Positions 18,301 to 53,529 of a DNA stretch of 64,000 nt are shown in pieces. Each line of letters begins with the position of its first letter. The stretch's first letter is position 1. The DNA comes from Actinomycetes bacterium (GTDB lineage Bacteria > Actinomycetota > Thermoleophilia > Gaiellales > F1-60-MAGs149), in assembly GCA_025360225.1 (NCBI GenBank), contig JANYCN010000077.1, positions 12,232 through 76,231 of the forward strand, read 5' to 3'. The notes beneath the pieces were generated by a model that was not told the origin of the DNA, did no database searches, and worked only from the letters and a program-made list of their open reading frames with translations. A program made the position numbers and the translations under genes.

Positions 18301-21300
18301 GGCACCGTCTCCGCGAACACGCCGACGACGATCACGCTGACGGCCCCCACGACGGGATTCTCGACCGCCGCCGCTGTTGGCTTCTCCGCCTCGAGCTTCA
18401 ACGGACAGGTCGTCGCGGTTCCTGCCAACACGCTCGTTGCCGGCTCCCTTGTCGGCGCGACGCTCGTCATCAACTCGACGTCTGGCATCATCGCGTCGAA
18501 CACCGCCTCGTCGATCACGCTCACAGCGAACGTTGGCGCCGCCACCACGAACGCCGTTTCCTTCTCGGTGGCGAACGTCCTCGTCGCGGCCATCAACACC
18601 AACGGGCTCGCCGGACAGTGGGTGATCACCGGGACAACGCCGACCGCGTTCGAGGGGCGCATCCTCAACGCGAACGCGACTGCAGGACCACAACGATGGA
18701 TGGTCATCGACCCGACCAGCGTCATCGGCACCCTCCCGACCGCTGGGACGGTGTTCGGCCTGTTCAACCCCGTTCTCCCGGCCTTCACTCCGGCGGGGCT
18801 CGCGGGACGCACGCTGGCCAACGGCGCCGTCACGGTCGACCTATCGACCTTCACCGCGACCGTGCTGACCAACACGAGCACCACGGTGAACCTGGCCTCG
18901 GTTGGCACCCAGGTGCCGCCGATGCCTGGCCTCGCCCTCCACGTGCGCGGCGACCTGACCGTGGCGATGAACAACAGTCCCTTCGCCGCCGGCACCCTCG
19001 CGGGACTCGTGCTCCGGCGGACAGACAACAGCACGATCGGGACGATCCTCAGCAACACCGCAAGCAGCGTCGTCCTTGCGTCGGCGAGCCTCATAGGAGC
19101 GATCCCGGGCACCGGCAGCACGGTCTACGCCGACAACGGCGTGATCACCGTCGCAGGTCCACCGCTTGTCGCAGGGACGCTCGTCGGATCGCTCACCATC
19201 ACGAGCGGCGCCGACACCGGCTTCACAGCGACGATCCTCGGGAACACCACCTCGACGATCACGATCGACCTCGCCACGGCTTCGCCTACAACCCTGCCGA
19301 CGTTGCGACCATCGGTGGGTGACACCTTCTCGGTGACGGGTGGCCAGACGATCAGTGCCACCGCAACGAACGTGGTCTGGTCGGACACCTCGATCAGCTT
19401 CACCATCGCCGCTGGCGTTCGCCCAGGCCCGTACCAGCTCTACGTCGTCAGCGCGAACGGCCAGCAGACGGTGAACGGCGTGACGCTGCACCTGATCGGT
19501 GGCGTCGGATCTGGCTACTTCATAGCGCCGAACCGGATCCTCGAGGTCGGACCGGGCCGGCAGTTTGATCCAACGCTTGCACAAGTGACCGGAACGCTTG
19601 CCGGTCCGCCCGGTGCGCCCTCGGCGAACGGCGACGTGACCGTTCCGCTCGCCGAGAGCGTTGTCGGCGACCTGACCGGTCTCACGTTCCGGGTCACGGA
19701 CGGCGCTGCGCTCGACTACACGGGCACGATCCGCTCGAACACGGCGACCAGCGTCACGCTCCGCGGCGACGCGCTTGTCAGCGCGAACCCAGACATCGTG
19801 CCTGCGAGCGTCCCTGCGCCTGGCGACACGTACTCGATCCGCCGTGGTCGGGGGATCCAGGACGCTATCAACACCGCCGCGGGCATACCGTCCGTAACGC
19901 CGGAGGGCAACCTTGGCGCCCTCGACAACTCGCCGGCGCTCGTCGTGGTCTATCCGGGACAGCCGGACATGGTCTACGACCCCGCCGGGCAGAGCCAGAG
20001 CAACGTCAACCCGCGAGGGGTGTACTTCGAGAACGTCGTTGTGCCGACCGACATCAAGATCCAGGGCGTAGGGCCCGGCGGCGTTCGCGCCGCGGGCGAT
20101 GCCGTCCCGGGCACCGTCGTCGATGGCTCCCAGTTCGTGATCAAGGACGGTGGCCGTTACGCCGTTGACTGGTACAACCTCGCCCTGTACGCTCAGGCCT
20201 CCAACGGCAATTCGAGCCCGATCGCCGACGGCTCGACGATCTACGAGCTGCCGGGGCATACCGACCTCTCGCCCGTGAACGGCGCGGCGGCCAGCGCGCT
20301 TGGCTGGCCTCGGACGCGCACAGCGGGCGGCGGATTCGCCACCGACGTCTACACCAACGCCACCAACGCCCCCGGGGTCGTGCAGGTCTCTGGAGGCACC
20401 GCGACGACAGCTGGGCTCGGGACGGCGCCACTCGCCCTCGTCACCGACCCACTCACCGTGCCGGCGAGCGGAACGATCACCGTGCGCTACCGCACGGGCG
20501 GCGGCGTGTTCGGACGGGCGAGCCTGTTCGTCCACCAGTTTGGCGCCAGCTTCAAGGCGGGCGTCGACGGCCTCTCGATCGAGGGCGGCGACATGCTCGA
20601 GTTCCCGACGAACCTGAACGGGAACGGCGGCGGCCCGCTGCCGCGGCGGGTGCTCTCCGTCGGACAGCCCGTCACGCAAGGCGGCGGGATCTTCGCCGAC
20701 ATGTACGCGAGCTTCCTGCAGCTAAAGAACAACATGATCACCGGTAACTCCGGCAGCTACGGCGGAGCGATCCGCCTCGGCACGCCGAACGTGCAGAACC
20801 CGAGCCACGCTGTCGGAGGCGCGTTCACCGATGACCTGTCAAACGAGAACAACGACGTCCGGATCGCGAACAACCAGGTCAACGCCAATGGCGGCGGCCG
20901 GCTCGCCGGCGCGATCGGCATCTTCAACGGCGCCGACCGCTTCGAGCTGGCCCGCAACGAGATCTGCGGTAACTACTCCGCGGAGTACGGCGCCGGCATC
21001 GGCGTCTTCGGACACTCGCCGTCCGGGGTGATCCACTACAACCGCGTCTACTTCAACCAGAGCCTCGACGAGGGCGCTGGCATCTTCATCGCTGGCCAGC
21101 TTGCGACACCGCGCCCGCTCTCGAACCAGCCGGTCAACGGGCAGCTCGCGACCGTCCCCGGCTGGAGCCAGGGCACCGGGCCCGAGACGATCGACGCCAA
21201 CGTCGTCCAGTCCAACCTCGCGAACGACGACGGGGGCGGCATCCGCTTCCTGATGGCCGGCAGTGACCCGCAGACGGTCACGAACAACATCATCGCCAAC

Positions 21301-22407: not shown

Positions 22408-24104
22408 CCGATGCCTCGCACGTGCGGCTCAGCCGCCGGCGCCTACTCGAGCTCGGCGGTGGAGCGACCGCCGGCGCGCTCGGCGCTGGAGTCCTCGCCG
22501 AGCTCCTCCGATCGCCCGGGACGGCTCGGGCGGGCGGGCTCGGCGGCGCCTCCGGCCCGGTCCTGTCGGTCGACCAGAGGACGATCGTCCGACGCTCGCT
22601 CGCCGGCACCGATGGCTGGATCTACCTCGGCGGACCGCCCCAGCAGACGGAAGCTGGTAAGGCGTTCTTCCCGGACGACATGGCGCCGGCGCCGCAGAAC
22701 GTCTACGTCTACGGCTTTCGCGACGTCACGTCAGCCCACCTCCAGTGGAACAACCTGCAGAGCGACGGCATGCCGGCCGGGATGGACGACGCCCACAGGA
22801 CGGCCGGCCACGACGCCCTCTACGGGTTGAAGGGTCAGACGCAGAACTCGTCGGTGATCCTCTTCTTCGACGAGGGCGACCAGGTCGAGATCACGCTCTA
22901 CAACCTTGGCTGGCAGCAGCGACCGGACATCCCCGACGGCCACACGATCCACTGGCACGGTTTCCGGGACGCGATCCCCTGGTACGACGGTGTCCCGGAG
23001 ATGTCCGGCGCGGCCCCGATCAACAAGACCTTCACCTACTTCTACGACTGCCAGATCCCCGGAACCTACATGTACCACTGCCACTGGGAGGACGTCGAGC
23101 ACATCCAGATGGGCATGACCGGCGCGATCTGGATCCGCCCGAAGCAGAACCTCGGCGTCGGCTCGATCCCGCCAGGCAAGTACGTCTACAACGACGGCAA
23201 CGGGTCGACAGCCTACGACCGCGAGTACGCCTGGATGCTGATGGACTACGACCTCGAGAAGCACCAGATGATCTCGCACATCCAGCAGCCGGACTGGCAC
23301 CTCTACCAGGCCAGCGGATGGATGATCAACGGCCGTTCCTACCCTGACACGATCGAGCCGCAGGGCGTCGCCGGCATCGGCACACCGAGCGGGGACGCCA
23401 TCGCGACGGGCGTCGTCATCGACTTGCCGACCGTGACGGATGGCGCGTTCTCGATCGCCACGAGCAGCAGCGACTCCACGACGGACGTCAGCGGGCAGCT
23501 TGCCTGGGTCACGAAGGGCACGGGCGCCGGCCAGGTGATGTCGATCACGTCGGGCACGCCGAGCTCGTTCATCGTCGACAAGCTCCCCTACCAGACGCTC
23601 GTGACGGCGAAACAGACGCGCCCCGACGACGTCGCGAAGGACGCGCCGATCCTTAAGGTGGGCGACACGATCGAGTTCCACCGGCCCGGCGCGAACCTCG
23701 TCTACCAACCAAACAGCGCGCTCGTGGCGGGTAATGCCGGGGACCGGGTGCTCGTTCGCATCGCGTGTCTTGGCTACCAGGACCACTCGATGACGATCGA
23801 TGGGTTGCCGTTCCGGGTCGTCGGCCGCGACGGCGACTGGCTCGCCGACAACGAGTACCGCACCGACGTGATCGACTGTGCCCCGGGCGAGAGCTACGAC
23901 GCGATCATCACGTTGCCGGCGCACAGCGGCGGCACGGGTCCGGACGTGTACATGTTCTACGACCGCGACCTGCCGTACTACAACAACGACGACGGCACGA
24001 GCGCCAACGGGTTCAATGGCATGGCGACCGAGGTACGCGTCTTCGCGGCGGGGTCGCTGCCCTCCCAACACATCGACCTCGCCAACAGCTGGGTGAAGGG
24101 GTAA
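22404..24104 (+). CDS. Tat-exported multicopper oxidase (MCO-A) with type-1 site and two HxH pairs in the first cupredoxin domain
   Basis: ATG 22404 forms an ATGA overlap with the giant-gene stop; SD GAAGGGGG lies upstream. Twin-arginine signal SRRRLLELGGGATAGALGAG. HTIHWHG (22941-22961) and YHCHWEDVEHIQMGM (23073-23117). The C-terminal cupredoxin-like domain (VRIACLGYQDHSMTIDG...) has no HxH. Confidence 0.85.
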   Translation: MTDASHVRLSRRRLLELGGGATAGALGAGVLAELLRSPGTARAGGLGGASGPVLSVDQRTIVRRSLAGTDGWIYLGGPPQQTEAGKAFFPDDMAPAPQNVYVYGFRDVTSAHLQWNNLQSDGMPAGMDDAHRTAGHDALYGLKGQTQNSSVILFFDEGDQVEITLYNLGWQQRPDIPDGHTIHWHGFRDAIPWYDGVPEMSGAAPINKTFTYFYDCQIPGTYMYHCHWEDVEHIQMGMTGAIWIRPKQNLGVGSIPPGKYVYNDGNGSTAYDREYAWMLMDYDLEKHQMISHIQQPDWHLYQASGWMINGRSYPDTIEPQGVAGIGTPSGDAIATGVVIDLPTVTDGAFSIATSSSDSTTDVSGQLAWVTKGTGAGQVMSITSGTPSSFIVDKLPYQTLVTAKQTRPDDVAKDAPILKVGDTIEFHRPGANLVYQPNSALVAGNAGDRVLVRIACLGYQDHSMTIDGLPFRVVGRDGDWLADNEYRTDVIDCAPGESYDAIITLPAHSGGTGPDVYMFYDRDLPYYNNDDGTSANGFNGMATEVRVFAAGSLPSQHIDLANSWVKG

Positions 24105-24108
24105 CGAC

Positions 24109-25605
24109 GTGGACGCAACCACCTCTACCACCGCGCTGCGACTCCGGCTCGCCGCCCGCCCGATCCTCGCTGTCCCTGCAGCTGCCGTGCTTGTCGCCGG
24201 GGCGCTCGGCATGATGACGACCACGGCCCGTTCGATCACCCCGGTTGTCGCCCGCGACGGCATCATTGACATGTGCGACAACGGCACGCCGGCGACCGGC
24301 AACCAGCGTGTGTTCGTGCTCACGGCTCGGGATGGCGCCATCCACACCGCGGACGGCAACTCCGTGCCGATGTGGGGATTCGCCCCTGACAACGGCGCAT
24401 ACCAGTATCCGTCACCGTTCCTCTGCGCCAAGCTCGGCGAGCGGGTCAGCGTGATCTTGCACAACGCAATCACCCCGGTTCCCGTCGCGGGCACCGCGAC
24501 CGTGACGCCCGTACGAACCTCGATCATGTTCCCGGGACAGACCGGTGTCCTCGCGAGGGGCGTGTCTGCGCAGCCTGAGCTGGACGGTTCCGGGAACCTC
24601 CGGTCGCTCGTCCCGTCGATCACGAGCGGCGACTCGATCACCTACTCGTTCGTTGCGGAAAGGGCCGGATCGTTCCTCTACCAGAGCGGCACCAACGCCG
24701 CCGTCCAGGAGCAGATGGGCCTCTTCGGTGGCCTCATCGTCCGTCCAACCGGCGGACAGACCACGGCGAGCGCGACCCTCTACGACGACGCGTTGGTCAA
24801 CAGTACGGCGAACCCGAACGCGACCGATCGCTACGACCCGCAGCGAGAGTTCGTGCAGATGCTCTCCGACGTCGACGTGACGGTGCACAACAACGTCGTC
24901 GACGGCATCACCATTGACATGGCGACCCTCCGGCCTGAGTACTTCTTCATCAACGGTCGGTCGATGCCCGACACGGTCGCCCCGAACCATGCGTCGTGGT
25001 TGCCGGCACAGCCCTACAGCGCGCTCGTCCACGTGTTGCCATACGTGGCGAACGGGCCGGCGGACGGTGCGCAGATCACCGTCGGCGGCTCGACCTTCAC
25101 CTGCAAGGGGCGCTGCTATGACCCGTTGCCCGCGGCGATTCGCTACTTCAACGCCCGGGAGAAGACCTCGCCGTTCCACCCGCACGCGGCGGACACGCTG
25201 GTGCAGGGCTTCGATGGCAACCAGCTCGTCTCGCCGTCGGGCACGAACCTCTCGATCAACCACTACGTCGTCAACCTCGCGGCAGGACAGACTGCCGACG
25301 CGACGTGGCTCTGGCGTGACCAGCACGCATGGAGCCCGATCGCAACCCACCAGGGTCCGGTGCCGGTGCATGACTTCCGCGACACGCGCTACACGGGCGG
25401 CGGGAGCTGGTACGGCGGCACGCCGTATCTTGGCTACACCGATGACCTGCAGGACGGCGTCACGTCGTTCAACGAGTGCGGCGAGTACTACCACGTGGCG
25501 CACAGCCATTCGGTGAACGAGGCGACGACCTACGGCGCGGCGATGGGCGGCATGCTCACCCTTTACCGTATCGATCCCCCCGGCATGTGGAACTGCGGGC
25601 ACTGA
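24109..25605 (+). CDS. multicopper-oxidase-like protein (MCO-B); N-domain ligands lost, C-domain HxH pairs kept, type-1 Cys replaced by Ser
   Basis: GTG 24109 lies 4 nt after the MCO-A stop, with SD GAAGGGG. Hydrophobic N-terminal anchor. SIMFPG and FLYQSG sit where HxHG and YHSH are expected. FHPH (25174-25185) and HVAHSH (25492-25509) are retained. Confidence 0.8.
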   Translation: MDATTSTTALRLRLAARPILAVPAAAVLVAGALGMMTTTARSITPVVARDGIIDMCDNGTPATGNQRVFVLTARDGAIHTADGNSVPMWGFAPDNGAYQYPSPFLCAKLGERVSVILHNAITPVPVAGTATVTPVRTSIMFPGQTGVLARGVSAQPELDGSGNLRSLVPSITSGDSITYSFVAERAGSFLYQSGTNAAVQEQMGLFGGLIVRPTGGQTTASATLYDDALVNSTANPNATDRYDPQREFVQMLSDVDVTVHNNVVDGITIDMATLRPEYFFINGRSMPDTVAPNHASWLPAQPYSALVHVLPYVANGPADGAQITVGGSTFTCKGRCYDPLPAAIRYFNAREKTSPFHPHAADTLVQGFDGNQLVSPSGTNLSINHYVVNLAAGQTADATWLWRDQHAWSPIATHQGPVPVHDFRDTRYTGGGSWYGGTPYLGYTDDLQDGVTSFNECGEYYHVAHSHSVNEATTYGAAMGGMLTLYRIDPPGMWNCGH

Positions 25606-25606
25606 G

Positions 25607-28600
25607 ATGCCTCATCACCGGACACCAGGAGAACGTGCCGTGATCATCCGCCGTCGTGCGTGCACGCTTGCCCTCTCACTGCTCGCCGTGACGACGCCGG
25701 GAGCCTTGGCTGCGGGCATCGGGAAGCTCGACCCTACCGGCAGCGGCTGCGTCCGCTCAGGGACGCACCTGACCTGTGACCTCTGGGTCGAGCCGGCAAC
25801 CATGGTGGTTCCCGCCGGGTTCCGTGCCAGCATTCCGGGCTCCGCGACCGACTCGTCGACCACGCTCGGGAGGCTCGCCGCCCTCGGCTACAATCTGCCG
25901 ACCTGGGTCTACGCCGCCGGCGCAAGCGAGCCGACGGGGCCCTTCACGGGCACGGGCGGCCCCACGATCGTCGCCAGCGAAGGTGACGCGGTGACGGTGA
26001 ACCTTCACAACACCCACCTGCTAGTTCCCCTGTCGCTGACCTTCCCACAGATCGTCGGCGTGCGTCATGACGGTCGTGCAGGCTCCGATCGCCTGGGCGT
26101 CGCGGGCGCGACAGTCACGACCTACACCTTCACTGCCTCGAGCCCCGGAACCTTCCTGTACCAGGCGGGGCCGACCGTGGCCGGCAAGCGCGCGATCGCG
26201 ATGGGGCTCTCAGGGGCGCTCGTCGTGGAGGGGAACACGGGCGCATATGACCTGCCTTCCGGGGCGTTCACGGACGAGGCCGTCGTCCTCCTCCAGGAGC
26301 TCGACCCGGCGCTGAACCTTTCGACCACGCCCTGGACGTTCGATCTGAGCCACTTCCAGGCGCACCTCTGGCTGCCGAACAACGCGCTCAGCGGCCGCTC
26401 GGGTGGCTCGAACACCGTGTCGGTCTCGGCGAACGCACCAACGCTCGTGCGCTACGTCAACGCGGGTCTGCAGGATCACTGGGTCTCGCTGCTCGGTTTG
26501 CCACAGCTTCGGATCGCCCAGGACGCGCAACCCCAGGTGAACCTAGGCCACGGGGTGGGTAACGCCAACTCAGACCAGTCGCTCAACGTGACGGTCGCCG
26601 CGCTCCCGGCCGGCACGACCGAGGACACGATCATCGCGATCCCCGGCACGACGCCGGACGGGTCGGCGTTCCCGCTCTACGACGACGGCAACGACGGCGG
26701 CACCTACGTAGCCACCGACGCCGCCGCCGTACGTGGGCCAGGGGTGTTCCAGAACCTCGTGGTCGCGACCGGAACCGGCACCGGTTCGATCGCGGCGTGC
26801 GGGATCACCGGCAGCGCCCCGCTCGCGACCGTGACTGGCCTCACTCCGCTCACACAGACGGTCGGTGGCGCGTCGCTCGCTGACGCATCGATCGCCGGCA
26901 CGGCCGTGGTCTGCGGTTCCGGGAGCCCCGCCTCGGCCGTCGAGTACTTCCTGGACGACATGGGAGCTCCCGGTACCGGCACGCCAGTGACGATGACTGG
27001 TGGTACGTTCACGACGACGATCTCGACCGCGACGCTCCTCGCGATCGACTCGAGTACCACCCCGGCGAGACGCGCCCTGCCCCACCGGGTGTGGTTCAGG
27101 GCGAACAACGGCAGCGCGTGGGGTGAGCTAAGCTCCGCGGAGATCGTCCTTGACACGGTCGGGCCTGACGTGAAACGCATCTCTACCGACCCGACGATCT
27201 CGAACGGCACGACGAGCGTGCACGTCTGGGTCTCCGGCGATGAGACGACGACCGGCAACACCGTCGTGACAGGCTTCGCCTGGTCGATCGCCGGTGCCAC
27301 GGATGCGGCGTGCGCGAGCACGGTGGGGATCCCGACGATCAATCAGGCCCCCGAGGTTGACCTCCAATTCGACATCCCGGTGGCGTGCACGTCGACGCTC
27401 GGCGAGGGGAACCACCTCCTCTCGATCGTCGCCACCGATCACTACGGCAACGCCACGGCGGCGGGTGGCATGAATGACCCGAACACCTACACGGTCGCGA
27501 TCGACACGACACCGCCTGCGCTCGTCCGGACCGCCGGCCTCGTTCGCGTCCCGGCCGGGCCGGACACGCCCGGCTCGCCCTACCCGGGCGACACGACCGC
27601 CGTTGCCGTCCAGGTCCTGCAGCGTCTCCCGTACGACGCCCAGAATCCGACCGGCGTGTTCGGAGGTCCGTTCACGAACTGGAACAACGGCACGCTCCCG
27701 TGGGAGCTGAACACCCACGAGCTCGGCGTGCGCGCCTCCGCGAGCGATCCCACCACGACCGGCGTGCGCTCGGGCGTCGCCGCGATGTACGGCTCGTTCG
27801 ACCCGGCGTTCTGCTCGACCGCCGATCCCGCCGGGGTTGGGGCACGCCTCGACGCGCAGGGCGGTCGCTTCCACGAGCCTGCGATCGGGTTCCAGTACAT
27901 CCCGCTCGCGCAGCTCGCGCAGTACACCAAGCTGTCCGCCGCCAGCAGCACGGACGCGACCTACCCGGGCGTCCGCGTCGCCTACTACGTGCGTGTCGTC
28001 GACACGGCCGGCAACTGGTCGGCGTGCCCGCATACCTACGACGTCGCGCTCGATGCTTCGGCGGGAACGCAACGTGACGAGATGGCAGCCGACCCCCTGA
28101 CCGGATCGCTGATCGTCGCCATCGGCGGCGACTTCGCAGTCGGCTCCCTGCAGCTGCCGAAGATCACAGCAGGTAACCGCGCAGTGTTCGCGAGCAGCCC
28201 GCGCCACACGACGATCAACGTCACGCTGCGTCTCGATGCCGCAACTCGCGGGGAGGGGAACGGCGTGACCGGTGCCGAGTGGTTCGACGGTCACGATCCG
28301 GGAGTCGGGAACGGTGTCCAGTTCTCTCTCGTCTCCGGGCAGTGGGGCGCCGTCACGGCCAACCTCGTCTCGACCGTCTCGACCGTTCGCTGGACACCTG
28401 GCGTGCACGTCATCGCGGCGCGCGTCCGCGACCGTGCAGGCAACTGGTCGGCGCTCACGACGGCCCGCTTCTCCGTCAGCCCGAGGGCGGTCTTCGCGGA
28501 CGGGTTCGAGTCGCGGCTCCGTCGTTGGGCCCACCGACAGGGAGTCGCGGTAACGTCCGCGGCAGCGCTCGTCGGGCGCCTCGGCCTGGCAGTGACGACC

Positions 28601-29038
28601 GGACACGGCGACGCCTACGTCGAGGCGCCCGCCCTGAGCACCGATACCTACCGCGCATCGTTCGTGGTCGACACCAACGGCTCACGTGTCGAGGGCGCGG
28701 TGCAGGACCTTCTTCTTGGCTCGAGCGGACGCGTCCGCCTGTTCGCCATCCAACGCACGACGCGCGGACAGCTCCAGTACATCCGCCTCGTCGCTCTCGA
28801 CGGAACACGGACGAAGGTCGGCGGGTGGACGGCGACGGGCGACGACCGCCACGCCGTCAGCGTCTCCTGGTTCGCCGGCTCGTCCGGCCTGGCCGAGCTG
28901 CGGCTCGACGGCCAACTCGTCTCCCGGCTTGCGGTGCTGCGCGCCGACGCGGCCCGTCTCACGACCGTCCGGCTCGGTGCGCTCGGTGGTGCTGGTACAG
29001 GATCGATCCGCTACGACGCGTACGTCTCAACACGCTAA
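25607..29038 (+). CDS. 1143-aa secreted protein: two ligand-less cupredoxin (MCO-like) domains, Ig-like modules, C-terminal LamG/jelly-roll-like domain
   Basis: ATG lies 1 nt after the MCO-B stop. Signal-like ACTLALSLLAVTTPGALAAG. TVNLHNTHLLVPLSLTFPQ and GTFLYQAGP..MGLSGALVVEG align to MCO domain 1 without His ligands. LDTVGPDV / IDTTPPAL Ig-module starts. C-terminus is AVFADGFESRLRRW...RLDGQLV... Confidence 0.75.
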   Translation: MPHHRTPGERAVIIRRRACTLALSLLAVTTPGALAAGIGKLDPTGSGCVRSGTHLTCDLWVEPATMVVPAGFRASIPGSATDSSTTLGRLAALGYNLPTWVYAAGASEPTGPFTGTGGPTIVASEGDAVTVNLHNTHLLVPLSLTFPQIVGVRHDGRAGSDRLGVAGATVTTYTFTASSPGTFLYQAGPTVAGKRAIAMGLSGALVVEGNTGAYDLPSGAFTDEAVVLLQELDPALNLSTTPWTFDLSHFQAHLWLPNNALSGRSGGSNTVSVSANAPTLVRYVNAGLQDHWVSLLGLPQLRIAQDAQPQVNLGHGVGNANSDQSLNVTVAALPAGTTEDTIIAIPGTTPDGSAFPLYDDGNDGGTYVATDAAAVRGPGVFQNLVVATGTGTGSIAACGITGSAPLATVTGLTPLTQTVGGASLADASIAGTAVVCGSGSPASAVEYFLDDMGAPGTGTPVTMTGGTFTTTISTATLLAIDSSTTPARRALPHRVWFRANNGSAWGELSSAEIVLDTVGPDVKRISTDPTISNGTTSVHVWVSGDETTTGNTVVTGFAWSIAGATDAACASTVGIPTINQAPEVDLQFDIPVACTSTLGEGNHLLSIVATDHYGNATAAGGMNDPNTYTVAIDTTPPALVRTAGLVRVPAGPDTPGSPYPGDTTAVAVQVLQRLPYDAQNPTGVFGGPFTNWNNGTLPWELNTHELGVRASASDPTTTGVRSGVAAMYGSFDPAFCSTADPAGVGARLDAQGGRFHEPAIGFQYIPLAQLAQYTKLSAASSTDATYPGVRVAYYVRVVDTAGNWSACPHTYDVALDASAGTQRDEMAADPLTGSLIVAIGGDFAVGSLQLPKITAGNRAVFASSPRHTTINVTLRLDAATRGEGNGVTGAEWFDGHDPGVGNGVQFSLVSGQWGAVTANLVSTVSTVRWTPGVHVIAARVRDRAGNWSALTTARFSVSPRAVFADGFESRLRRWAHRQGVAVTSAAALVGRLGLAVTTGHGDAYVEAPALSTDTYRASFVVDTNGSRVEGAVQDLLLGSSGRVRLFAIQRTTRGQLQYIRLVALDGTRTKVGGWTATGDDRHAVSVSWFAGSSGLAELRLDGQLVSRLAVLRADAARLTTVRLGALGGAGTGSIRYDAYVSTR

Positions 29039-47635: not shown

Positions 47636-48362
47636 CGTGTTCACGCTGTTCCCGAGCTGGTTCGCGTGGCTCACGGAGGAGCGGCACGTGGCAAACGTGC
47701 TCGGGTCGCAGCTGACGCTGTCCCTGCATGCCCTTCGTGACAGCTCGCCGGTGCGTCACCGCGCCGTCGATGACACGCCGTACGGCGGCGGTGCGGGGAT
47801 GCTGCTGCGGGTCGACGTGATCGTTGCTGCGCTGGAGGCCGCGTTCGGTGCCCCGGTCGAGCAGGTCCGCGCGCAGCGCCGGGTGATCGCCCTCGACCCG
47901 GGCGGACGGCGGTTCGACGACGGGTACGCGCGCGAGCTCGCGGCATCGGAGGGCTTCGCGCTCCTCTGCGGGCGCTACGAGGGCTTCGACGGTCGCGTCC
48001 TCGAGCACGTCGCGACCGAGGCGCTCTCGCTCGGACCCTACGTCCTCTCCGGCGGAGAGCCGGCGGCGATGGTCGTGATCGACGCGGTCGTGCGGCACCT
48101 GCCGGGTGCGCTCGGCGCCGAGCAGTCGGCCCACCTCGACTCGTTCTCGCCCGGCCTCGACGGTCGACTCGAGCACCCTCACTACACCCGACCGGAGACC
48201 TTCCGTGGCTGGTCAGTGCCCCCGGTCCTGCTCTCAGGCGACCATGGGGCGATCGCTCGCTGGCGCGAGGCGCAATCGGTCCTGCGCACAGAAGCGGCGA
48301 GCGACCCGCAACGAGCCGCTAGCATGCGAAGTCCAGACGTTCGAACGATTGGTTCGCCATGA
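47622..48362 (+). CDS. trmD: tRNA (guanine37-N1)-methyltransferase
   Basis: [36 protein letters not shown]. Confidence 0.92.
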
Positions 48363-48703
48363 GCACCATCATCCGTGACATCGAGCAGATGCAGCTCCGT
48401 GAGATCCCCGCGTTCAAGGCGGGCGACACGGTTCAGGTTCACTTCCGCGTGATCGAGGGCAGTCGCCAGCGCGTGCAGGTGTTCGAGGGTATCGTCATCA
48501 AGCGCCAGGGTCACGGCGTACGTGAGACGTTCACGGTGCGCAAGCAGTCGTTCGGCGTTGGCGTCGAGCGCACGTTCCCCGTCCACTCGCCGAAGATCGA
48601 CAAGATCGTCGTCGGCGCGATCGGCGACGTGAGCCGCGCGAAGCTGTACTACCTGCGTGACAAGGTGGGCAAGAAGGCGCGCGTCCGCGAGAAGCAGCGC
48701 TGA
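48359..48703 (+). CDS. rplS: 50S ribosomal protein L19
   Basis: [35 protein letters not shown] overlap with trmD. Confidence 0.93.
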
Positions 48704-48736
48704 CCGATCGCGGCGCTGGTCGGGTAGGCTGAGGTC

Positions 48737-49432
48737 GTGACCTCAGGGCCCGACGAGTGGGTGGGCGTCCTCGTTGAGCCTGCTCAGCAGGGCCCTGCAG
48801 CTGACGTGACCGCGCCCGCCGCGCCGGTACCGCGGCGTCGCCGGCTGCTCGGTGCGCTCGGTCCGTGGGCCGAGCTGGTGGTCGTCATCGCGGTCGCCTT
48901 TGCCCTCGCGATCGGGCTCCAAGCGTTCCTCTTCAAGCCGTACCTGATTCCCTCCGGGTCGATGGAGACCACGCTGGTCAGTGGCGACCGCGTGATCGTC
49001 GTTCGCTTCTGGTACCGCTTCAACGAGGTCGCCCGCGGCGACATCGTCGTGTTCCACCCGCCCGGCAAGGGCGACGAGAAGATCGACCGCGCTCCCGGGC
49101 CCGCGAACGACCTGACGTACATCAAGCGCGTCATCGGGCTACCGGGGGAGTGGATCGGCGGCGCGCAGCAGAAGGTCTGGATCTGTCGTTCCGTGCCCCA
49201 CGATGAGCGGCATCCCGGGTCAGGCTGCCGCGCGTTGAACGAGCCGTACGTCTCCTCCCTGCAGGAGAGCTTCCCGTTCCGCCAGGTCGCCGCTGACCAC
49301 TACTTCATGATGGGCGACAACCGAGACAACTCCGAGGACTCGCGCTTCATCGGCCAGATTCCCGCCGGCTGGATGCTCGGGCGCGCTTTCGTGCGCTACT
49401 GGCCGATCACGCGCGTTGGCTGGGTAGGCTGA
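48737..49432 (+). CDS. lepB: signal peptidase I, paralogue 1 (catalytic residues intact)
   Basis: Box B IPSGSMETTL, box D YIKRVIGLPGE, box E GDNRDNSEDSRF. Confidence 0.88.
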   Translation: MTSGPDEWVGVLVEPAQQGPAADVTAPAAPVPRRRRLLGALGPWAELVVVIAVAFALAIGLQAFLFKPYLIPSGSMETTLVSGDRVIVVRFWYRFNEVARGDIVVFHPPGKGDEKIDRAPGPANDLTYIKRVIGLPGEWIGGAQQKVWICRSVPHDERHPGSGCRALNEPYVSSLQESFPFRQVAADHYFMMGDNRDNSEDSRFIGQIPAGWMLGRAFVRYWPITRVGWVG

Positions 49433-49438
49433 GATCCG

Positions 49439-50074
49439 GTGCTGAAGGCCATCCTGAAGAACCCCGCCGTCGACCTGCTCGTGACGCTCGTCATGGCCGC
49501 GGGCATCGCCTACGTCGTGCAGCTGCTCGTCGTCAAGCCATTCGTCGTGCCGTCTGAGTCGATGGTGCCAACGCTCGCCATCGGCGATCGAATTCTCGGC
49601 GTGCGCTTTCTCTACCACCTGACGAGCCCACAGCGTGGCGACATCATCGTGTTCCACCCAAACGGTCAGGGCGAGGACTCGGCGCCGCCGATTCAGGGGC
49701 AGCCGCGGACGATGGCGGAGCCGTACTACGTGAAGCGCCTGATCGGCCTGCCGGGTGAGGAGGTAGGGTCGCACGGGGGTACGGTCTGGGTCTGCGCACC
49801 GGGTGCCAGGGCGGCTGATCTGGAACATCCAGAGAACACGCGTGGGTGTGCGTACCTGAAGGAGCCGTACACGCATGGACAGAAGACCTGGCAGTACGGC
49901 GAGACGGGGCAGGACCTGTCGCCGATCAACGTGCCGAAGGGCGAGTACCTGATGCTCGGCGACAACCGCGAGCTCTCACGGGATGGCCGGTTCTTCGGCA
50001 CCGTGCTGGAGTCGCAGTTCCGCGCGCGCGCCTTCATGACGTACTGGCCGCTCACCCGGATCTCGTTCTACTAA
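49439..50074 (+). CDS. signal peptidase I, paralogue 2 (catalytic residues intact)
   Basis: VPSESMVPTL, YVKRLIGLPGE, GDNRELSRDGRF. Confidence 0.88.
   Translation: MLKAILKNPAVDLLVTLVMAAGIAYVVQLLVVKPFVVPSESMVPTLAIGDRILGVRFLYHLTSPQRGDIIVFHPNGQGEDSAPPIQGQPRTMAEPYYVKRLIGLPGEEVGSHGGTVWVCAPGARAADLEHPENTRGCAYLKEPYTHGQKTWQYGETGQDLSPINVPKGEYLMLGDNRELSRDGRFFGTVLESQFRARAFMTYWPLTRISFY
49741..50006 (+). repeat. near-identical tract shared by paralogues 2 and 3 (copy 1)
   Basis: Aligned by eye to 50369-50634 (offset 628 nt): 6 mismatches in 266 nt, and only 2 in the central ~207 nt. The 5' halves of the two genes are strongly diverged. Confidence 0.85.
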
Positions 50075-50087
50075 CGATGACGTCCTG

Positions 50088-50702
50088 ATGCTTCGCCGGC
50101 TCCTCGGCCGTCCGTACCTCCTCGTCGTCGTTCCGGGCGCCGCGGTCCTTGTTGCCCTGGTCTGTGGCGTGAGACCGTTCACGGTGCCGTCGACGGCGAT
50201 GCAGCCCGCACACGTGGCCGGTGAGAACCTCGTCGGTGTGCCGATCCTGACGAGCCCGCAGCGTGCTGACATCGTCGTCTTCCACGCCAACGGCCGGGGT
50301 GCCGACTCGTTCCCGCCGACCAAGGGGCAGCCGCGGACGATGGCCGAAACGTCGATGGTGAAACGCCTGATCGGGCTGCCGGGTGAGGAGGTAGCGGCGC
50401 ACGGGGGTACGGTCTGGGTCTGCGTACCGGGTGCCAGGGCGGCTGATCTGGAACATCCAGAGAACACGCGTGGGTGTGCGTACCTGAAGGAGCCGTACAC
50501 GCATGGACAGAAGACCTGGCAGTACGGCGAGACGGGGCAGGCCCTGTCGCCGATCAACGTGCCGAAGGGCGAGTACCTGATGCTCGGCGACAACCGCGAG
50601 CTGTCACGGGATGGCCGGTTCTTCGGCACCGTGCGCGAGTCGCAGCTCCAAGCTCGCGCGTTCATGACCTTCTGGCCGCTCACGCGGATCTCGTTCCTCT
50701 AA
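50088..50702 (+). CDS. signal-peptidase-I-like protein, paralogue 3 (nucleophile Ser replaced by Ala)
   Basis: VPSTAMQPAH where paralogues 1, 2 and 4 have PS(G/E/P)SM. Lys box MVKRLIGLPGE and GDNRELSRDGRF are retained. The 3' half is near-identical to paralogue 2. Confidence 0.8.
   Translation: MLRRLLGRPYLLVVVPGAAVLVALVCGVRPFTVPSTAMQPAHVAGENLVGVPILTSPQRADIVVFHANGRGADSFPPTKGQPRTMAETSMVKRLIGLPGEEVAAHGGTVWVCVPGARAADLEHPENTRGCAYLKEPYTHGQKTWQYGETGQALSPINVPKGEYLMLGDNRELSRDGRFFGTVRESQLQARAFMTFWPLTRISFL
50369..50634 (+). repeat. near-identical tract shared by paralogues 2 and 3 (copy 2)
   Basis: See copy 1. The antisense track ORFs 49220..49876 and 50052..50504 open with the same peptide, which independently confirms the repeat. 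Confidence 0.85.
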
Positions 50703-50709
50703 GGCGAGC

Positions 50710-51333
50710 GTGCTGCTCCGTCGTCTTCTCCGGCACCCGGTCGTGGACATCGTCCGCGTGATCGCGATCGTGATCGCCCTGATCCTCGCGTGCTTCACCT
50801 GGGTCGTGCGCCCGTACTCGATCCCGACCCCGTCGATGGTGCCAACGATCGAGCAGGGCGACTACGTGCTCGCCGCGCGATTCCTCTACCACCTGCGCGA
50901 CCCGGAGCGTGGCGACATCGTCGTCTTCTACCCGAACGGGTCGGGCGGGAACGCCTTCCGTTCGAACACCGCCGCGAGCGAGGCGTACATCAAACGGCTG
51001 ATCGGGCTTCCCGGCGAGGTCGTCGGCTCGCGTGCGGGCCGTGTCTGGGTCTGTGCGGACGATCGCGAGCCAGCCGACCAGAACCACCCGGAGGTGACCC
51101 CTGGCTGTCGGTTTCTCGTCGAGCCGTACGTCCATGGGAAGGCGACGGGCGAGTGTCCGCCGTCTGGCGGTGACCTCACGCCAATCCATATCCCGCCCCG
51201 CCGCTACCTGATGCTCGGTGATAACCGGACCGACTCGAACGATGGCCGCTGCTGGGGGCTGATCCGCGAGAGCCAGATCATCGGCCCCGCCGTCTTCCGC
51301 TACTGGCCGCTCGACCGGATCGGGCCGTTCTAG
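50710..51333 (+). CDS. signal peptidase I, paralogue 4 (catalytic residues intact)
   Basis: IPTPSMVPTI, YIKRLIGLPGE, GDNRTDSNDGRCWG. Confidence 0.86.
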   Translation: MLLRRLLRHPVVDIVRVIAIVIALILACFTWVVRPYSIPTPSMVPTIEQGDYVLAARFLYHLRDPERGDIVVFYPNGSGGNAFRSNTAASEAYIKRLIGLPGEVVGSRAGRVWVCADDREPADQNHPEVTPGCRFLVEPYVHGKATGECPPSGGDLTPIHIPPRRYLMLGDNRTDSNDGRCWGLIRESQIIGPAVFRYWPLDRIGPF

Positions 51334-51349
51334 TGTCGCGCGTCCGCAG

Positions 51350-51558
51350 TTCGTTGACAGCTGCCGGCGAGAAGCGAGTATGGCCAGTGACGGCGACCGA
51401 TCTTGCTGATCGCGGGCGTGCTGGATCGCCCGCCCGCTCGCACGCGTGTCAAGGCGTTCGCCTTGACACGCTACGTGACCGAGCCGGGACGCAGCCTGCC
51501 AGACCGCGCTCGGGCGGGGTTTCAGACGGCGCCTCGCAGCGCCGCGACTGTCAACGAA
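51350..51558. repeat. nested inverted-repeat structure in the 275-bp spacer between paralogues 4 and 5
   Basis: Central perfect palindrome GCGTGTCAAGGCG-TT-CGCCTTGACACGC (51444-51471). Outer 11-bp inverted repeat TTCGTTGACAG (51350-51360) / CTGTCAACGAA (51548-51558), roughly concentric with it. Every arm contains TTGACA. Confidence 0.7.
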
Positions 51559-51608
51559 TCTCGGACGCGCGACACTAGTGCCTCCTCGGACGGCAGGGGC
51601 ATAGCGCG

Positions 51609-52502
51609 GTGGCCGCGCGCCGTCCACGGGCCAGCCGCGTCACCGCGTGGAGCTTCCGGCTCGCGCGCCTCGCACGCTGGCCACGTCCGCTGTTCATCGT
51701 GCTGCTCGTGGCGGGAATCGGAGTGCTTGCGGCCGGCTGGCGCCCGCTCGTCATCGTCGCGGCGGCGACATGGGGTCTCGTCGCTGCCGCGACGATCCTC
51801 GACGCTCGCCTCCGCGGTCGTCACGGCTACATCGCCGGCCTGCTCGCGCTCGCCGGCGGGCCGCTCGTCGCCGCCGCGATCGCGCTCGCGGTGCGCCGGC
51901 ACGTGCGCAAGGTATCCCCCCGGTTTCGCGCCGCGCCGCCGCTCGCTCTCGCCACCTTCCTCGCCGCCCTTGTCGGGCTCACCGCGGCGGGTTTCTGGGT
52001 CGAGAATCGCGTTGGCTTCACCGACGTCGTGCCGTCGGCGGCGATGGAACCGCGCATCCGTCTCGGTGATCGCGTCGTGATCGCGCCGATCATGAAGAAG
52101 GCCCCTCGGCGTGGTGACATCGTTGCGATCGGCCCGTTCCCCGGTGCGGTTGCGGTCACGGGCATCCGGCGGGTCGTCGCGATCGCCCGCGTGCTTGGAT
52201 TACCGGGTGACTGGATCGGCGCGACCGCCGACCGAGGGCTCTACGTCTGCTCGAGCGCGCCCCGCATCACCCGGCAGATCGTGCCGGACGACGTTTGCCG
52301 GTTCCCCGACGAGACGTCGTACATCTCCCGGCAGACCGCGGTCTTCGGCCCGGTCGAGGTGCCGACTGGCACGGTCTTCGTTCTCGGTGACAACCGCCAG
52401 TCGCTCGACGACTCGCGCACGTACGGCCCCGTGCCACGGTCGGCGCTGATCGGGCCGGTCGTGATGACGGTCTGGCCGCTCTCCCGGCTGGCCGTGCGGT
52501 AG
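51609..52502 (+). CDS. signal-peptidase-I-like protein, paralogue 5 (both Ser and Lys of the dyad replaced; extended multi-TM N-terminus)
   Basis: VPSAAMEPRI (Ala at the nucleophile position) and VAIARVLGLPGD (Ala-Arg where KR is expected). GDNRQSLDDSRTYG is retained. About 4 hydrophobic segments precede the domain. The GTG start is uncertain. Confidence 0.7.
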   Translation: MAARRPRASRVTAWSFRLARLARWPRPLFIVLLVAGIGVLAAGWRPLVIVAAATWGLVAAATILDARLRGRHGYIAGLLALAGGPLVAAAIALAVRRHVRKVSPRFRAAPPLALATFLAALVGLTAAGFWVENRVGFTDVVPSAAMEPRIRLGDRVVIAPIMKKAPRRGDIVAIGPFPGAVAVTGIRRVVAIARVLGLPGDWIGATADRGLYVCSSAPRITRQIVPDDVCRFPDETSYISRQTAVFGPVEVPTGTVFVLGDNRQSLDDSRTYGPVPRSALIGPVVMTVWPLSRLAVR

Positions 52503-52520
52503 CGGCCACTCTATGCTGCC

Positions 52521-53183
52521 GTGATGGCCGTCGCTCCGACCCGCCTTCGCCGAGGACGCCAGCCCTTGCGCCGGCTCCTCCGGCACGACCTCGCGCTCGG
52601 CGGGCGACTGGTGGGCGGCGCTGACGAGGCCGGGCGCGGAGCGCTTGCCGGACCGCTCGTCGCTGCCGCCGTTCTCCTCGAACCAGCAGCGCTCACCGTC
52701 GGCGAGCGGCGATCCCTTGCGCGGCTCGACGACTCGAAACGGTGCACGGCGCACGTGCGGGCGGCGCTCCTGCCGGCGGTGCTCGCCGCCGCGCGCGGCG
52801 TTGCAGTCGTCGTCGTGTCACCGGCGACGATCGATCGGTGGAACATCCATGTCGCGAACCTTCAGGCGCTTGCGGACGCGCTTGACGGTCTCGCCGCGCC
52901 GGCCGACGCCGTCCTCGTCTCCGATGGGTTCCGGTTGCCGCTCACCCGTCCCCACGTGGCGGTGATCGATGGTGATGAGAAGTCGGCGAGCGTCGCTGCG
53001 GCGTCGATCGTCGCGAAGGTCACGCGTGATCGCCTGATGACCCGGCTCGATGCGGCGTTTCCTGCCTACGGATTCCTGCGTCACGTCGGCTACGGGACGC
53101 CGGAGCACCTCGAAGCGATCCGTCAGCACGGGCCCTCCGTGCACCATCGGCGCAGCTTCTCGCCGTTCGCACAGAGGACGTAG
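52521..53183 (+). CDS. rnhB: ribonuclease HII
   Basis: GADEAGRGALAGPLVAAAV and DSKRC motifs; conserved position after lepB. Confidence 0.9.
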   Translation: MMAVAPTRLRRGRQPLRRLLRHDLALGGRLVGGADEAGRGALAGPLVAAAVLLEPAALTVGERRSLARLDDSKRCTAHVRAALLPAVLAAARGVAVVVVSPATIDRWNIHVANLQALADALDGLAAPADAVLVSDGFRLPLTRPHVAVIDGDEKSASVAAASIVAKVTRDRLMTRLDAAFPAYGFLRHVGYGTPEHLEAIRQHGPSVHHRRSFSPFAQRT

Positions 53184-53529
53184 CGCAGTCGCCGCCGCGA
53201 ACGATCGACGCTCGGCGTATGGTGCCCGGGGCGAGAAGCTGGCAGCCTGGGCGTACCGGCTGCGGGGCTACCGCATCCTCGGGCGCCGCGTCCGCACGCC
53301 CGAGGGCGAGGTGGACCTGGTGTGCCGCCGCGGTCGAACGCTGGTCGTCGTCGAGGTGAAGCGTCGCCGCGTTGCTGACCACGAGGAGCGGTGGGTGCGG
53401 CGCGGTCAGTTGAACCGTGTGCGTGCGGCGACCGCCTGGCTCGTTCGCGAGCACCGCTGGGCGCGTTCCTCACGCGTCGACCTCGTCACCATTGAGGGCT
53501 GGCGCGTGCGCATCGTCCGCGGCGCCTGA
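53050..53529 (+). CDS. yraN: YraN family (UPF0102) endonuclease-like protein; true start uncertain
   Basis: GARGEKLAAWAYRLRGYRILGRRVRTPEGEVDLVCRRGRTLVVVEVKRR is the YraN core and begins near 53210. The only canonical in-frame start is ATG 53050, which overlaps rnhB by 134 nt. Confidence 0.65.
   Translation: MRRFLPTDSCVTSATGRRSTSKRSVSTGPPCTIGAASRRSHRGRSAVAAANDRRSAYGARGEKLAAWAYRLRGYRILGRRVRTPEGEVDLVCRRGRTLVVVEVKRRRVADHEERWVRRGQLNRVRAATAWLVREHRWARSSRVDLVTIEGWRVRIVRGA

Follow-up and report, generated by a model that had tools for sequence, protein, structure and literature searches.

The last of five type I signal peptidase (SPase; family S26) homologues encoded in a 64,000-nucleotide (nt) stretch of DNA from an Actinomycetes bacterium (assembly GCA_025360225.1, contig JANYCN010000077.1, positions 12,232 to 76,231; this whole stretch is hereafter called the window) is very probably a conserved, non-catalytic S26 homologue that is paired with lepB. 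The five genes, named P1 to P5 here, lie head-to-tail on the + strand at 48737-52502 and are flanked by rplS and rnhB. Relatives of P5 make up a previously undescribed protein family, and a literature search returned no paper joining signal peptidase with Thermoleophilia, nor type I signal peptidase with pseudoenzyme. Precedents exist both for S26 proteins without catalysis (SipA and SpsA) and for SPase genes clustered in tandem (sipWXYZ of Streptomyces). The account that we favor, and that we hold as a whole with moderate confidence, is that a conserved LepB and a dead P5-type partner form a pair, that the catalytic gene of this pair was amplified in the window, and that one of the amplified copies, P3, is drifting.

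The P5-type family and its active site

Each of the five proteins scores above the curated cutoffs of Pfam PF10502 (72-145 bits vs 22.9) and NCBIfam TIGR02227 (82-133 bits vs 47). This agrees with the original prediction, which was made from the sequence without database searches and had described five SPase I open reading frames (ORFs) in tandem between rplS and rnhB. Residue equivalence was assigned by three routes: one multiple alignment that included LepB of E. coli and SipS of B. subtilis, pairwise alignments to SpsB (4wvg) and to 4me8, and a larger family alignment. Over residues 75-323, the LepB query matches the PDB chains exactly, which upholds the classical E. coli numbering; the SipS sequence in the alignment is unverified. 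The Ser-box and Lys-box motifs that had been reported stand in these alignments. From P1 to P5, the nucleophile position (E. coli Ser90, box B) reads PSGSM, PSESM, PSTAM, PTPSM and PSAAM. P1-P4 keep the general-base Lys (E. coli Lys145, box D; KR[VL]IGLPGE), which is Ala in P5 (IARVLGLPGD), and the equivalent of Ser278 (box E) is kept in P1-P4 and is Leu in P5. The nucleophile, the Lys and the Ser278 equivalent are all intact in canonical P1 (48737-49432; 231 amino acids (aa), with one N-terminal transmembrane (TM) segment; KRVIGLPGE and GDNRDNSEDSR), P2 (49439-50074; 211 aa; KRLIGLPGE and GDNRELSRDGR) and P4 (50710-51333; 207 aa; KRLIGLPGE and GDNRTDSNDGR). Judged by these residue states, the three look like working enzymes, and the window carries three tandem, catalytically intact SPase I genes in the manner of a Streptomyces-type multi-SPase cluster.

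P3 and P5 had both been described as lacking the catalytic dyad while retaining box E. For the dyad, this is right for P5 (51609-52502; 297 aa), in which both residues are Ala; in the alignment to 4me8, its AAM falls on SSM and its IAR on AKR. P3 (50088-50702; 204 aa), on the other hand, has lost only the Ser half (PSTAM, codon GCG), its Ala falling on the position that was mutated (Ser36Ala) in 4wvg, a crystal construct of SpsB, and both the Lys and the Ser278 equivalent are intact. For box E, the description fits P3 but not P5 (GDNRQSLDDSR), where Leu at Ser278 means that a third residue of the catalytic center is gone and where Asp280, Ser281 and Arg282 are retained. Going by characterized mutants and homologues, both proteins have presumably lost activity, and they should not be filed as active SPases.

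Single-sequence queries with P5 and P3 in word-indexed searches returned few relatives, and the P5-type family emerged through an exhaustive profile search and a search with an 11-sequence alignment. Two P5 orthologues came from the single-sequence search, P0002 (77% identity) and P0003 (59%, with the long N-terminus retained), each encoded directly upstream of rnhB. A profile search of all 1.84 billion representative proteins recovered ~12 full-length matches that include the N-terminal region (expect values (E) of 1e-161 to 1e-27), after which the scores fall off a cliff and generic S26 proteins begin at ~1e-22. With the 11-sequence family alignment, the family comprises at least 36 clusters at 90% identity. 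Its named sources are two entries of 'Gaiellales bacterium' and one of 'Thermoleophilia bacterium', and all named hits are called signal peptidase I. A three-sequence P5 alignment run against genome and metagenome contigs, with back-translated patterns that were too narrow, found nothing beyond remote S26 loci of the generic kind (24-30% identity), from Hydrogenedentota and from two contigs of peat or soil origin.

Catalytic positions were tabulated over 44 P5-type members and cleft positions over 39, fragments being excluded from the latter. Lys is present at its position in 0/43 informative members (Gly in 34, Leu in 5, Ala in 2, Tyr and Phe in 1 each), and Ser at the Ser278 position in 0/42 (Leu in 35, Pro and Ile in 2 each, Gly, Asp and Phe in 1 each). 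The nucleophile position (n=42) is Ala in 37 members, Ser in 2, and Gly, Asp or Thr in 1 each. With no member keeping the Lys or the Ser278 that positions it, and hardly any keeping the nucleophile Ser, P5-type proteins cannot perform Ser/Lys catalysis. The canonical neighbors encoded upstream of P5-type genes read Ser/Lys/Ser in 10/10 cases examined. The hydrophobic S1/S3 pocket of the cleft is kept in the family: P87 is Pro in 38/39 members, M91 is Met in 37/39, and I86, L95, I101 and I144 are V, I or L (n=39). Other positions are remodeled, with G272 replaced by Ser (31/39), N274 by Asp (33/39) and T94 by Arg (35/39), and at S88 the family has R, S, Q, G or N.

One could still imagine P5-type proteins as proteases with a non-canonical catalytic arrangement, given that P0002 and P0131 retain the nucleophile Ser and that Asp-Ser-Arg, Glu235 and Tyr212 are invariant in the domain. 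We regard this as very improbable. Ala dominates at the nucleophile position, the S88 position varies, and the Ser at G272 fills the Lys space, as happens in SipA. The list of residues invariant in the family contains no alternative Ser, Lys or His within the S26-like domain, so that the neighboring Ser or Lys envisaged in the original prediction as a structural substitute was not found at the sequence level. In addition, SipA and SpsA carry comparable substitutions and showed no activity (PMC4049620, PMC12414704).

The P5-type family is under purifying selection, with a ratio of nonsynonymous to synonymous substitution rates (dN/dS) in the same range as in the active paralogues. Pairs of P5 orthologues gave 0.28, 0.44 and 0.57, next to 0.44 for P4 (with P0014, L001), 0.41 for P1 (with the 241-aa orthologue in the related loci L008/L009) and 0.36 for P2 (with the orthologue P0012 in L008); all of these are rough Nei-Gojobori values at a third-position GC content (GC3) of ~0.86 and a dS of 0.6-0.95 (0.4-1 over the selection estimates as a whole), which counts against pressing them far.

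Dead family members have a practical consequence for annotation. Since P5-type proteins score above the TIGR02227 equivalog cutoff (82.1 and 63.6 bits vs 47) and go by the name of signal peptidase I in public records, counts of active SPases in these genomes are inflated. Bacterial type I SPases are antibiotic targets.

Pairing with lepB, architecture and possible role

The original prediction missed the basic unit of this locus, a conserved pair of lepB and a P5-type gene. Five complete related loci (L015, L016, L017, L018 and L020; three on contigs with NCBI assembly accessions, and L016 in both ENA and NCBI) share the order rplS, one canonical 199-aa S26 gene, P5 type, rnhB and yraN. In four of the five, yraN is followed by a Mg-chelatase-like gene, dprA and sodA; the L016 contig ends before these. 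The canonical and the P5-type gene are separated by 3-4 nt in 4/5 of these loci. The P5 type is the last S26 gene and lies directly upstream of rnhB in the window, L001, L004, L013-L018 and L020. Closer relatives have further canonical copies ahead of it. L011/L012 carry two, L002 carries at least two, and L008/L009 carry three, in the order P1-like, P2-like, P4-like and then P5-type. The fourth ORF of L008 (2380-2703) reads MAFRPHGS...ARWPRP...LDARLRG...RRHVRK, which is a P5-type N-terminus. A more distant relative, L010, has a single lepB and no P5 type. Together, the single-lepB loci and the extra canonical copies in closer relatives point to an ancestral unit of an active LepB and a dead P5-type partner; in the window lineage, amplification was confined to the catalytic gene. 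In one clade of soil actinobacteria, probably Thermoleophilia and Gaiellales, the gene that comes right after that of the genuine enzyme thus encodes a conserved, catalytically dead membrane protein that resembles LepB.

One irregularity was seen in these loci. The third S26 gene of L008 (1548-2306) contains a run of N, and only its C-terminal 114 aa were called (P0019). The counterpart in L009 starts normally with PTPSM, and the truncation in L008 is an assembly gap and not real.

P5 consists of two parts, an N-terminal module (residues 1-134; 51609-52010) with an Arg-rich tail, an amphipathic helix and four hydrophobic helices, and an S26-like domain without catalytic residues (52011-52502). 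The module is marked by the family motifs ARWPRP, LDARLRG, GP and RRxVRK, which are present in the window P5 and in full-length relatives, and by the invariant residues D65, R69, G73, G84, P85, R96, R97, R100 and K101. It gave no meaningful Pfam or NCBIfam match at E up to 10 and no structural match in a Foldseek search of the PDB. An AlphaFold2 (AF2) model of P5 based on 27 family sequences (mean predicted local distance difference test (pLDDT) 79.8, predicted template modeling score (pTM) 0.69) places the amphipathic helix at 10-20 and hydrophobic helices at 26-41, 47-68, 73-94 and 104-134, followed by a beta-rich domain; pLDDT drops under 50 at residues 265-269 only, where the degenerate loop of box E lies. 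The long N-terminus of about four TM segments that had been noticed in P5 is therefore conserved in orthologues and takes the form of four hydrophobic helices in the model. The expectation that P5 keeps the fold held up as well, as S26 profiles are passed and the model has E. coli LepB, SipA and SpsB as its top Foldseek hits in the PDB.

The conserved core of the locus is a two-gene unit in which a catalytic type I SPase is followed by a LepB-like membrane protein of the P5 type. The latter, predicted to be anchored by its four-helix N-terminal module, keeps the S26 beta-fold, the hydrophobic S1/S3 cleft and the structural Asp-Ser-Arg of box E. Co-expressed with LepB, it might bind signal-peptide-like segments in the groove of its inert S26 domain, or dock onto LepB, and in this way act as a holder, presenter or scaffold in pre-protein processing. 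Analogy and synteny suggest that the P5 type could be a non-enzymatic partner, or peptide binder, of the adjacent peptidase, a tentative assignment that we find quite possible without calling it probable. The more far-reaching idea, that LepB and the P5 type make up a bacterial signal peptidase of two subunits, with the P5 type as the obligate one without catalysis, and thus a counterpart of the multi-subunit eukaryotic complex, is unlikely. To our knowledge, bacterial type I SPases are regarded as single-subunit enzymes. The likeness to the eukaryotic signal peptidase complex (SPC; SEC11 plus non-catalytic membrane subunits, PDB 7p2q) is one of functional analogy only: the N-terminal module of P5 showed no homology to SPC subunits, and 7p2q was matched weakly by Foldseek (E 0.36).

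Two known S26 proteins without activity serve as points of comparison. SipA of S. pyogenes (SipA/LepA; PDB 4n31, 4k8w) is signal-peptidase-like and essential for pilus polymerization. Its dyad is replaced by Asp48/Gly85, Ser278 by Arg and Gly272 by Asn, and it retains the cleft and has no activity (PMC4049620). The P5 type resembles SipA in having an S26 fold without the dyad or Ser278, a relaxed constraint at G272 and a hydrophobic cleft; the Gly found at the Lys position in 34/43 members recalls Gly85, and the P5 model matches SipA (4n31) with a TM-score of 0.67-0.69, normalized to SipA. However, SipA has a single TM helix and belongs to a sortase/pilin (FCT) cluster, whereas the P5 type has a four-helix module and sits in a housekeeping rplS-lepB-rnhB locus. 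Their sequence likeness is at the generic S26 level (E between 2e-4 and 4e-4, confined to ~40 residues in box E), which argues that catalysis was lost independently. A link to sortase-dependent pili was also considered and rejected, as no sortase or pilin hit was found among six large upstream ORFs (Pfam) or among the called genes of related loci, the rest of the window being unscanned.

In S. aureus, the SpsA gene lies upstream of spsB. SpsA, encoded beside spsB, the gene of the essential active SPase, is missing both dyad residues and showed no peptidase activity, and its deletion reduces phagosomal escape (PMC12414704). The P5 type likewise adjoins an active SPase gene and lacks both dyad residues. 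SpsA, however, is a short Firmicute protein with one TM segment, whereas the P5 type is encoded downstream of lepB and has a distinct N-terminal module, and this differing architecture argues against orthology. The P5 type is a dead S26 fold with a cleft, as SipA and SpsA are, but a member of neither family. It would represent a third independent S26 fold recruited for a non-enzymatic role, in this case one tied to a housekeeping secretion locus. The original prediction had read both dead paralogues as pseudo-peptidases that might act as binders, regulators or chaperones. For P5, this reading fits a conserved dyad-less family with a retained cleft and purifying selection, and such a role would follow by analogy with SipA and SpsA. 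For P3, which is known from one genome, has a branch omega of ~1 and has undergone gene conversion (see below), it is improbable.

Alternatively, the function of the P5 type could reside mainly in its N-terminal module, as a membrane scaffold, a sensor or a transporter-like element, with the dead S26 domain as a structural ectodomain and the lepB adjacency as a relic of duplication. The module does contain many invariant residues, including the charged D65, R69, R96, R97, R100 and K101, it is without a homologue in Pfam, NCBIfam or the PDB, and the catalytic center has been thoroughly remodeled. Nevertheless, the S26-like domain is strongly conserved too, with invariant positions throughout and its cleft hydrophobics kept, and gene order and the 3-4 nt spacing from lepB are maintained across divergent members, which exceeds what duplication ancestry requires. 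We therefore consider a function mainly in the module unlikely, if reasonable, and retain the partner reading as the tentative choice.

Several points weigh against the partner reading and the wider account. Its basis is analogy and synteny, and the adjacency of lepB and the P5 type could reflect a tandem-duplication origin alone. The nucleophile Ser is present in two P5-type members, the above-mentioned P0002 and P0131, and the taxonomy of the family is drawn from three source names. In the window itself, tight co-translation of P4 and P5 does not apply, as a 249-bp element intervenes. Membrane topology is a further concern. With four full spans and the Arg-rich N-terminus inside, the S26-like domain would be cytoplasmic and a +6 loop would be outside, and a cytoplasmic domain does not fit a signal-peptide-binding role. 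If instead helix 73-94, with its invariant Gly-Pro in mid-helix, is re-entrant, the positive-inside rule is satisfied and the domain would be outside. C214 and C230, which are invariant in the P5-type family and present also in P1-P4, suggest from their conservation a disulfide and an extracytoplasmic domain. Both topologies are predictions from hydropathy and AF2 secondary structure.

P3 and the expansion of the catalytic gene

In the course of events that we envisage for this expanded lepB locus, which probably belongs to an actinobacterium of the class Thermoleophilia, tandem duplication would have amplified the catalytic gene to P1, P2 and P4 plus P3. The last would have been copied from P2 at a later stage, would then have lost the nucleophile and become near-neutral in its catalytic half, and would have been partly homogenized with its parent through gene conversion. 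No genome other than this one was seen to have the extra copy P3. It is missing from the L008/L009 array, the relatives nearest to it (43-46% identity, itself excluded) retain the nucleophile Ser without exception, and Ala at the nucleophile occurs in no other sequence retrieved from a 5.8-billion-protein collection. P3 derives from P2, because the two have in common a five-residue insertion in the PPxxGQPRTMAE segment. Their nucleotide comparison is a mosaic. Over the first 50 codons, identity is ~55% and dS is 0.98. Further downstream, a 282-nt tract of P3 (50364-50645) is 97.2% identical to P2 49736-50017; it includes a 116-nt exact run (50426-50541 in P3, 49798-49913 in P2), and dS is 0.07 over alignment columns 96-180, roughly the extent of the tract. 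The tract is a recent gene conversion and not the product of protein-level purifying selection, since selection alone would not keep synonymous sites so alike.

The N-terminal part of P3, which contains box B, has accumulated 14-22 lineage-specific amino-acid changes vs 2-7 in P2 in Tajima relative-rate tests with nine clade outgroups (chi-squared up to 16.7). P3 carries five substitutions and one deletion at sites that are invariant in ten relatives; these include the nucleophile, PTL to PAH, R63P, P81A and a 3-aa deletion. In the catalytic half, branch omega (dN/dS) from three-taxon comparisons with orthologous outgroups is 0.8-1.1 for P3 vs 0.2-0.4 for P2. No clear Shine-Dalgarno sequence was seen upstream of P3. 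We conclude that P3 is probably an inactive, drifting duplicate. As such, it catches in progress one way in which pseudo-enzymes may come about, namely duplication followed by nucleophile loss, relaxed constraint and gene conversion. Two results speak against this: the acceleration of P3 vanishes when P4 is used as the outgroup, and the 5' (N-terminal) half of P3 is present on one contig only. Residues 1-30 of P3 (50088-50177) share MLRRLL.RP and VRP with P4 (50710-50800) and not with P2. The extreme N-terminus of P3 was possibly converted from P4 as a second donor, which would explain the lost asymmetry.

On a different view, P3 would be a functional pseudo-peptidase that is maintained; as a natural substrate trap with Ser changed to Ala, it would bind pre-proteins and modulate what P1, P2 and P4 process. 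The ORF is intact, its indels are in frame, and P3 still has its TM anchor and Lys along with boxes D and E. Moreover, an engineered Ser-to-Ala SPase retains substrate binding: SpsB constructs of the 4wvg series have Ala at this position, and the series includes complexes with a substrate peptide and with inhibitors. Yet no other retrieved sequence carries the Ala, and omega is ~1 on the P3 branch in the catalytic half. The changes PTL to PAH, the 3-aa deletion and R63P fall in or beside cleft strands at sites invariant in relatives, translation of P3 would start without a clear Shine-Dalgarno sequence, and an intact ORF is weak evidence at ~67% GC. A substrate trap is thus improbable, and drift after duplication remains our preferred explanation for P3.

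Window 50443-53500 recurs with 100% identity in a second, independent assembly (GCA_043763365.1, contig JAYULQ010000078.1), which covers the 3' end of P3 with its P3-specific variants, P4, the gap and P5. This contig starts at 50443, inside the 116-nt exact P2/P3 run, as expected because a true repeat breaks assemblers there. P3 as a misassembled strain variant of P2 was rejected, its N-terminal half being only ~55% identical and its junctions unique. The broader possibility that P5 is a decaying pseudogene, or that the P2/P3 duplication is an assembly artefact, might draw on the lost catalytic residues, the metagenome-type assembly, the break of the second assembly within the P2/P3 repeat and the occurrence of P2 and P3 each on one contig. 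It is highly improbable in view of the conservation of P5 over at least 36 clusters with a dN/dS of 0.28-0.57 and many invariant residues; on the side of P3, the divergent N-terminal half, the unique junctions on both sides and the 3' end reproduced in the second assembly argue against an artefact.

The four SPases of Streptomyces all keep the dyad and are active. Where PMC8724576 cites Parro 1999 and Escutia 2006, the S. lividans genes sipW-sipX-sipY-sipZ are given as four clustered, partly redundant type I SPase genes. The window array is similar in that several type I SPase genes are clustered in an actinomycete, but unlike sipWXYZ it includes one copy without the Ser and a terminal gene from a dyad-less family. 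In close relatives, the canonical copies number no more than one to three, which makes the expansion of P1-P4 an event independent of the Streptomyces cluster.

Locus layout and neighboring features

The upstream boundary of the array is rplS (ribosomal protein L19; 48359-48703, + strand), an ORF whose same-position gene in relatives matches PF01245. The downstream boundary is rnhB (RNase HII; 52521-53183, + strand), likewise called as an ORF, and its position after the P5-type gene is kept in 5/5 complete related loci. The order in the window is ffh, a KH-domain gene, rimM, trmD, rplS, the array, rnhB, yraN, a Mg-chelatase-like gene and dprA. This order from ffh to dprA is the usual actinobacterial arrangement. 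A scan for promoters and terminators gave nothing exceeding shuffle expectation, and Rfam gave no credible match in 48300-53300. Directly upstream of the P1 start, the sequence at 48707-48736 (…ggtcgggtaggctgaggtcGTG) resembles the 3' end of P1 plus the upstream region of P2 (49415-49438, …ggctgggtaggctgagatccgGTG). This likeness may be the trace of a duplication-unit boundary from unequal crossing-over.

The element between P4 and P5 (51330-51578, 249 bp, no strand assigned) has 31-nt terminal inverted repeats (CTAGTGTCGCGCGTCCGCAGTTCGTTGACAG and its complement, 90% complementary), CTAG at both ends and a perfect 13-nt palindrome inside (51444-51471). The P4 stop codon sits in its left arm. 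Folded as RNA, the element has a free energy (dG) of -153 kcal/mol and a z of -7.6. It is single-copy within the window and has no Rfam match, and the junction between P4 and the P5-type gene in the relative L001 is just 51 nt. The element looks like an insertion of the miniature inverted-repeat transposable element (MITE) kind or a lineage-specific structured RNA.

The original prediction had also suggested that the array might matter for a cell exporting proteins of 1143-3364 aa, which our data do not bear out. Single-lepB relatives also pair with the P5 type, independent of the expansion, so a link between array and export is unsupported. All large ORFs lie outside the array: one of 3364 aa with weak SdrD-B and beta-helix hits, a multicopper-oxidase-like one of 1143 aa, and an SMC protein of 1172 aa. 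The SMC protein is cytoplasmic, and the others are >20 kb away. At window 12313-29038, the 3364-aa ORF is followed by three multicopper-oxidase-like ORFs (631, 498 and 1143 aa), and the region may be a large surface-protein and oxidase cluster; nothing was found tying this cluster to the SPase array.

Two further observations were made in relatives. A 472-aa pentapeptide-repeat protein is encoded between rimM and trmD in L015 (3677-5095) and L016 (3103-4521), within the conserved ffh-rpsP-rimM-trmD-rplS block. P0008, a 210-aa protein from a metagenome-assembled genome (MAG) named Acidimicrobiia bacterium, has a PSSSM Ser box, by eye an Arg at the Lys position (VIRRVVATGGD) and a C-terminal TM-like tail, and it may represent another independent lineage of atypical S26 proteins in Actinomycetota.

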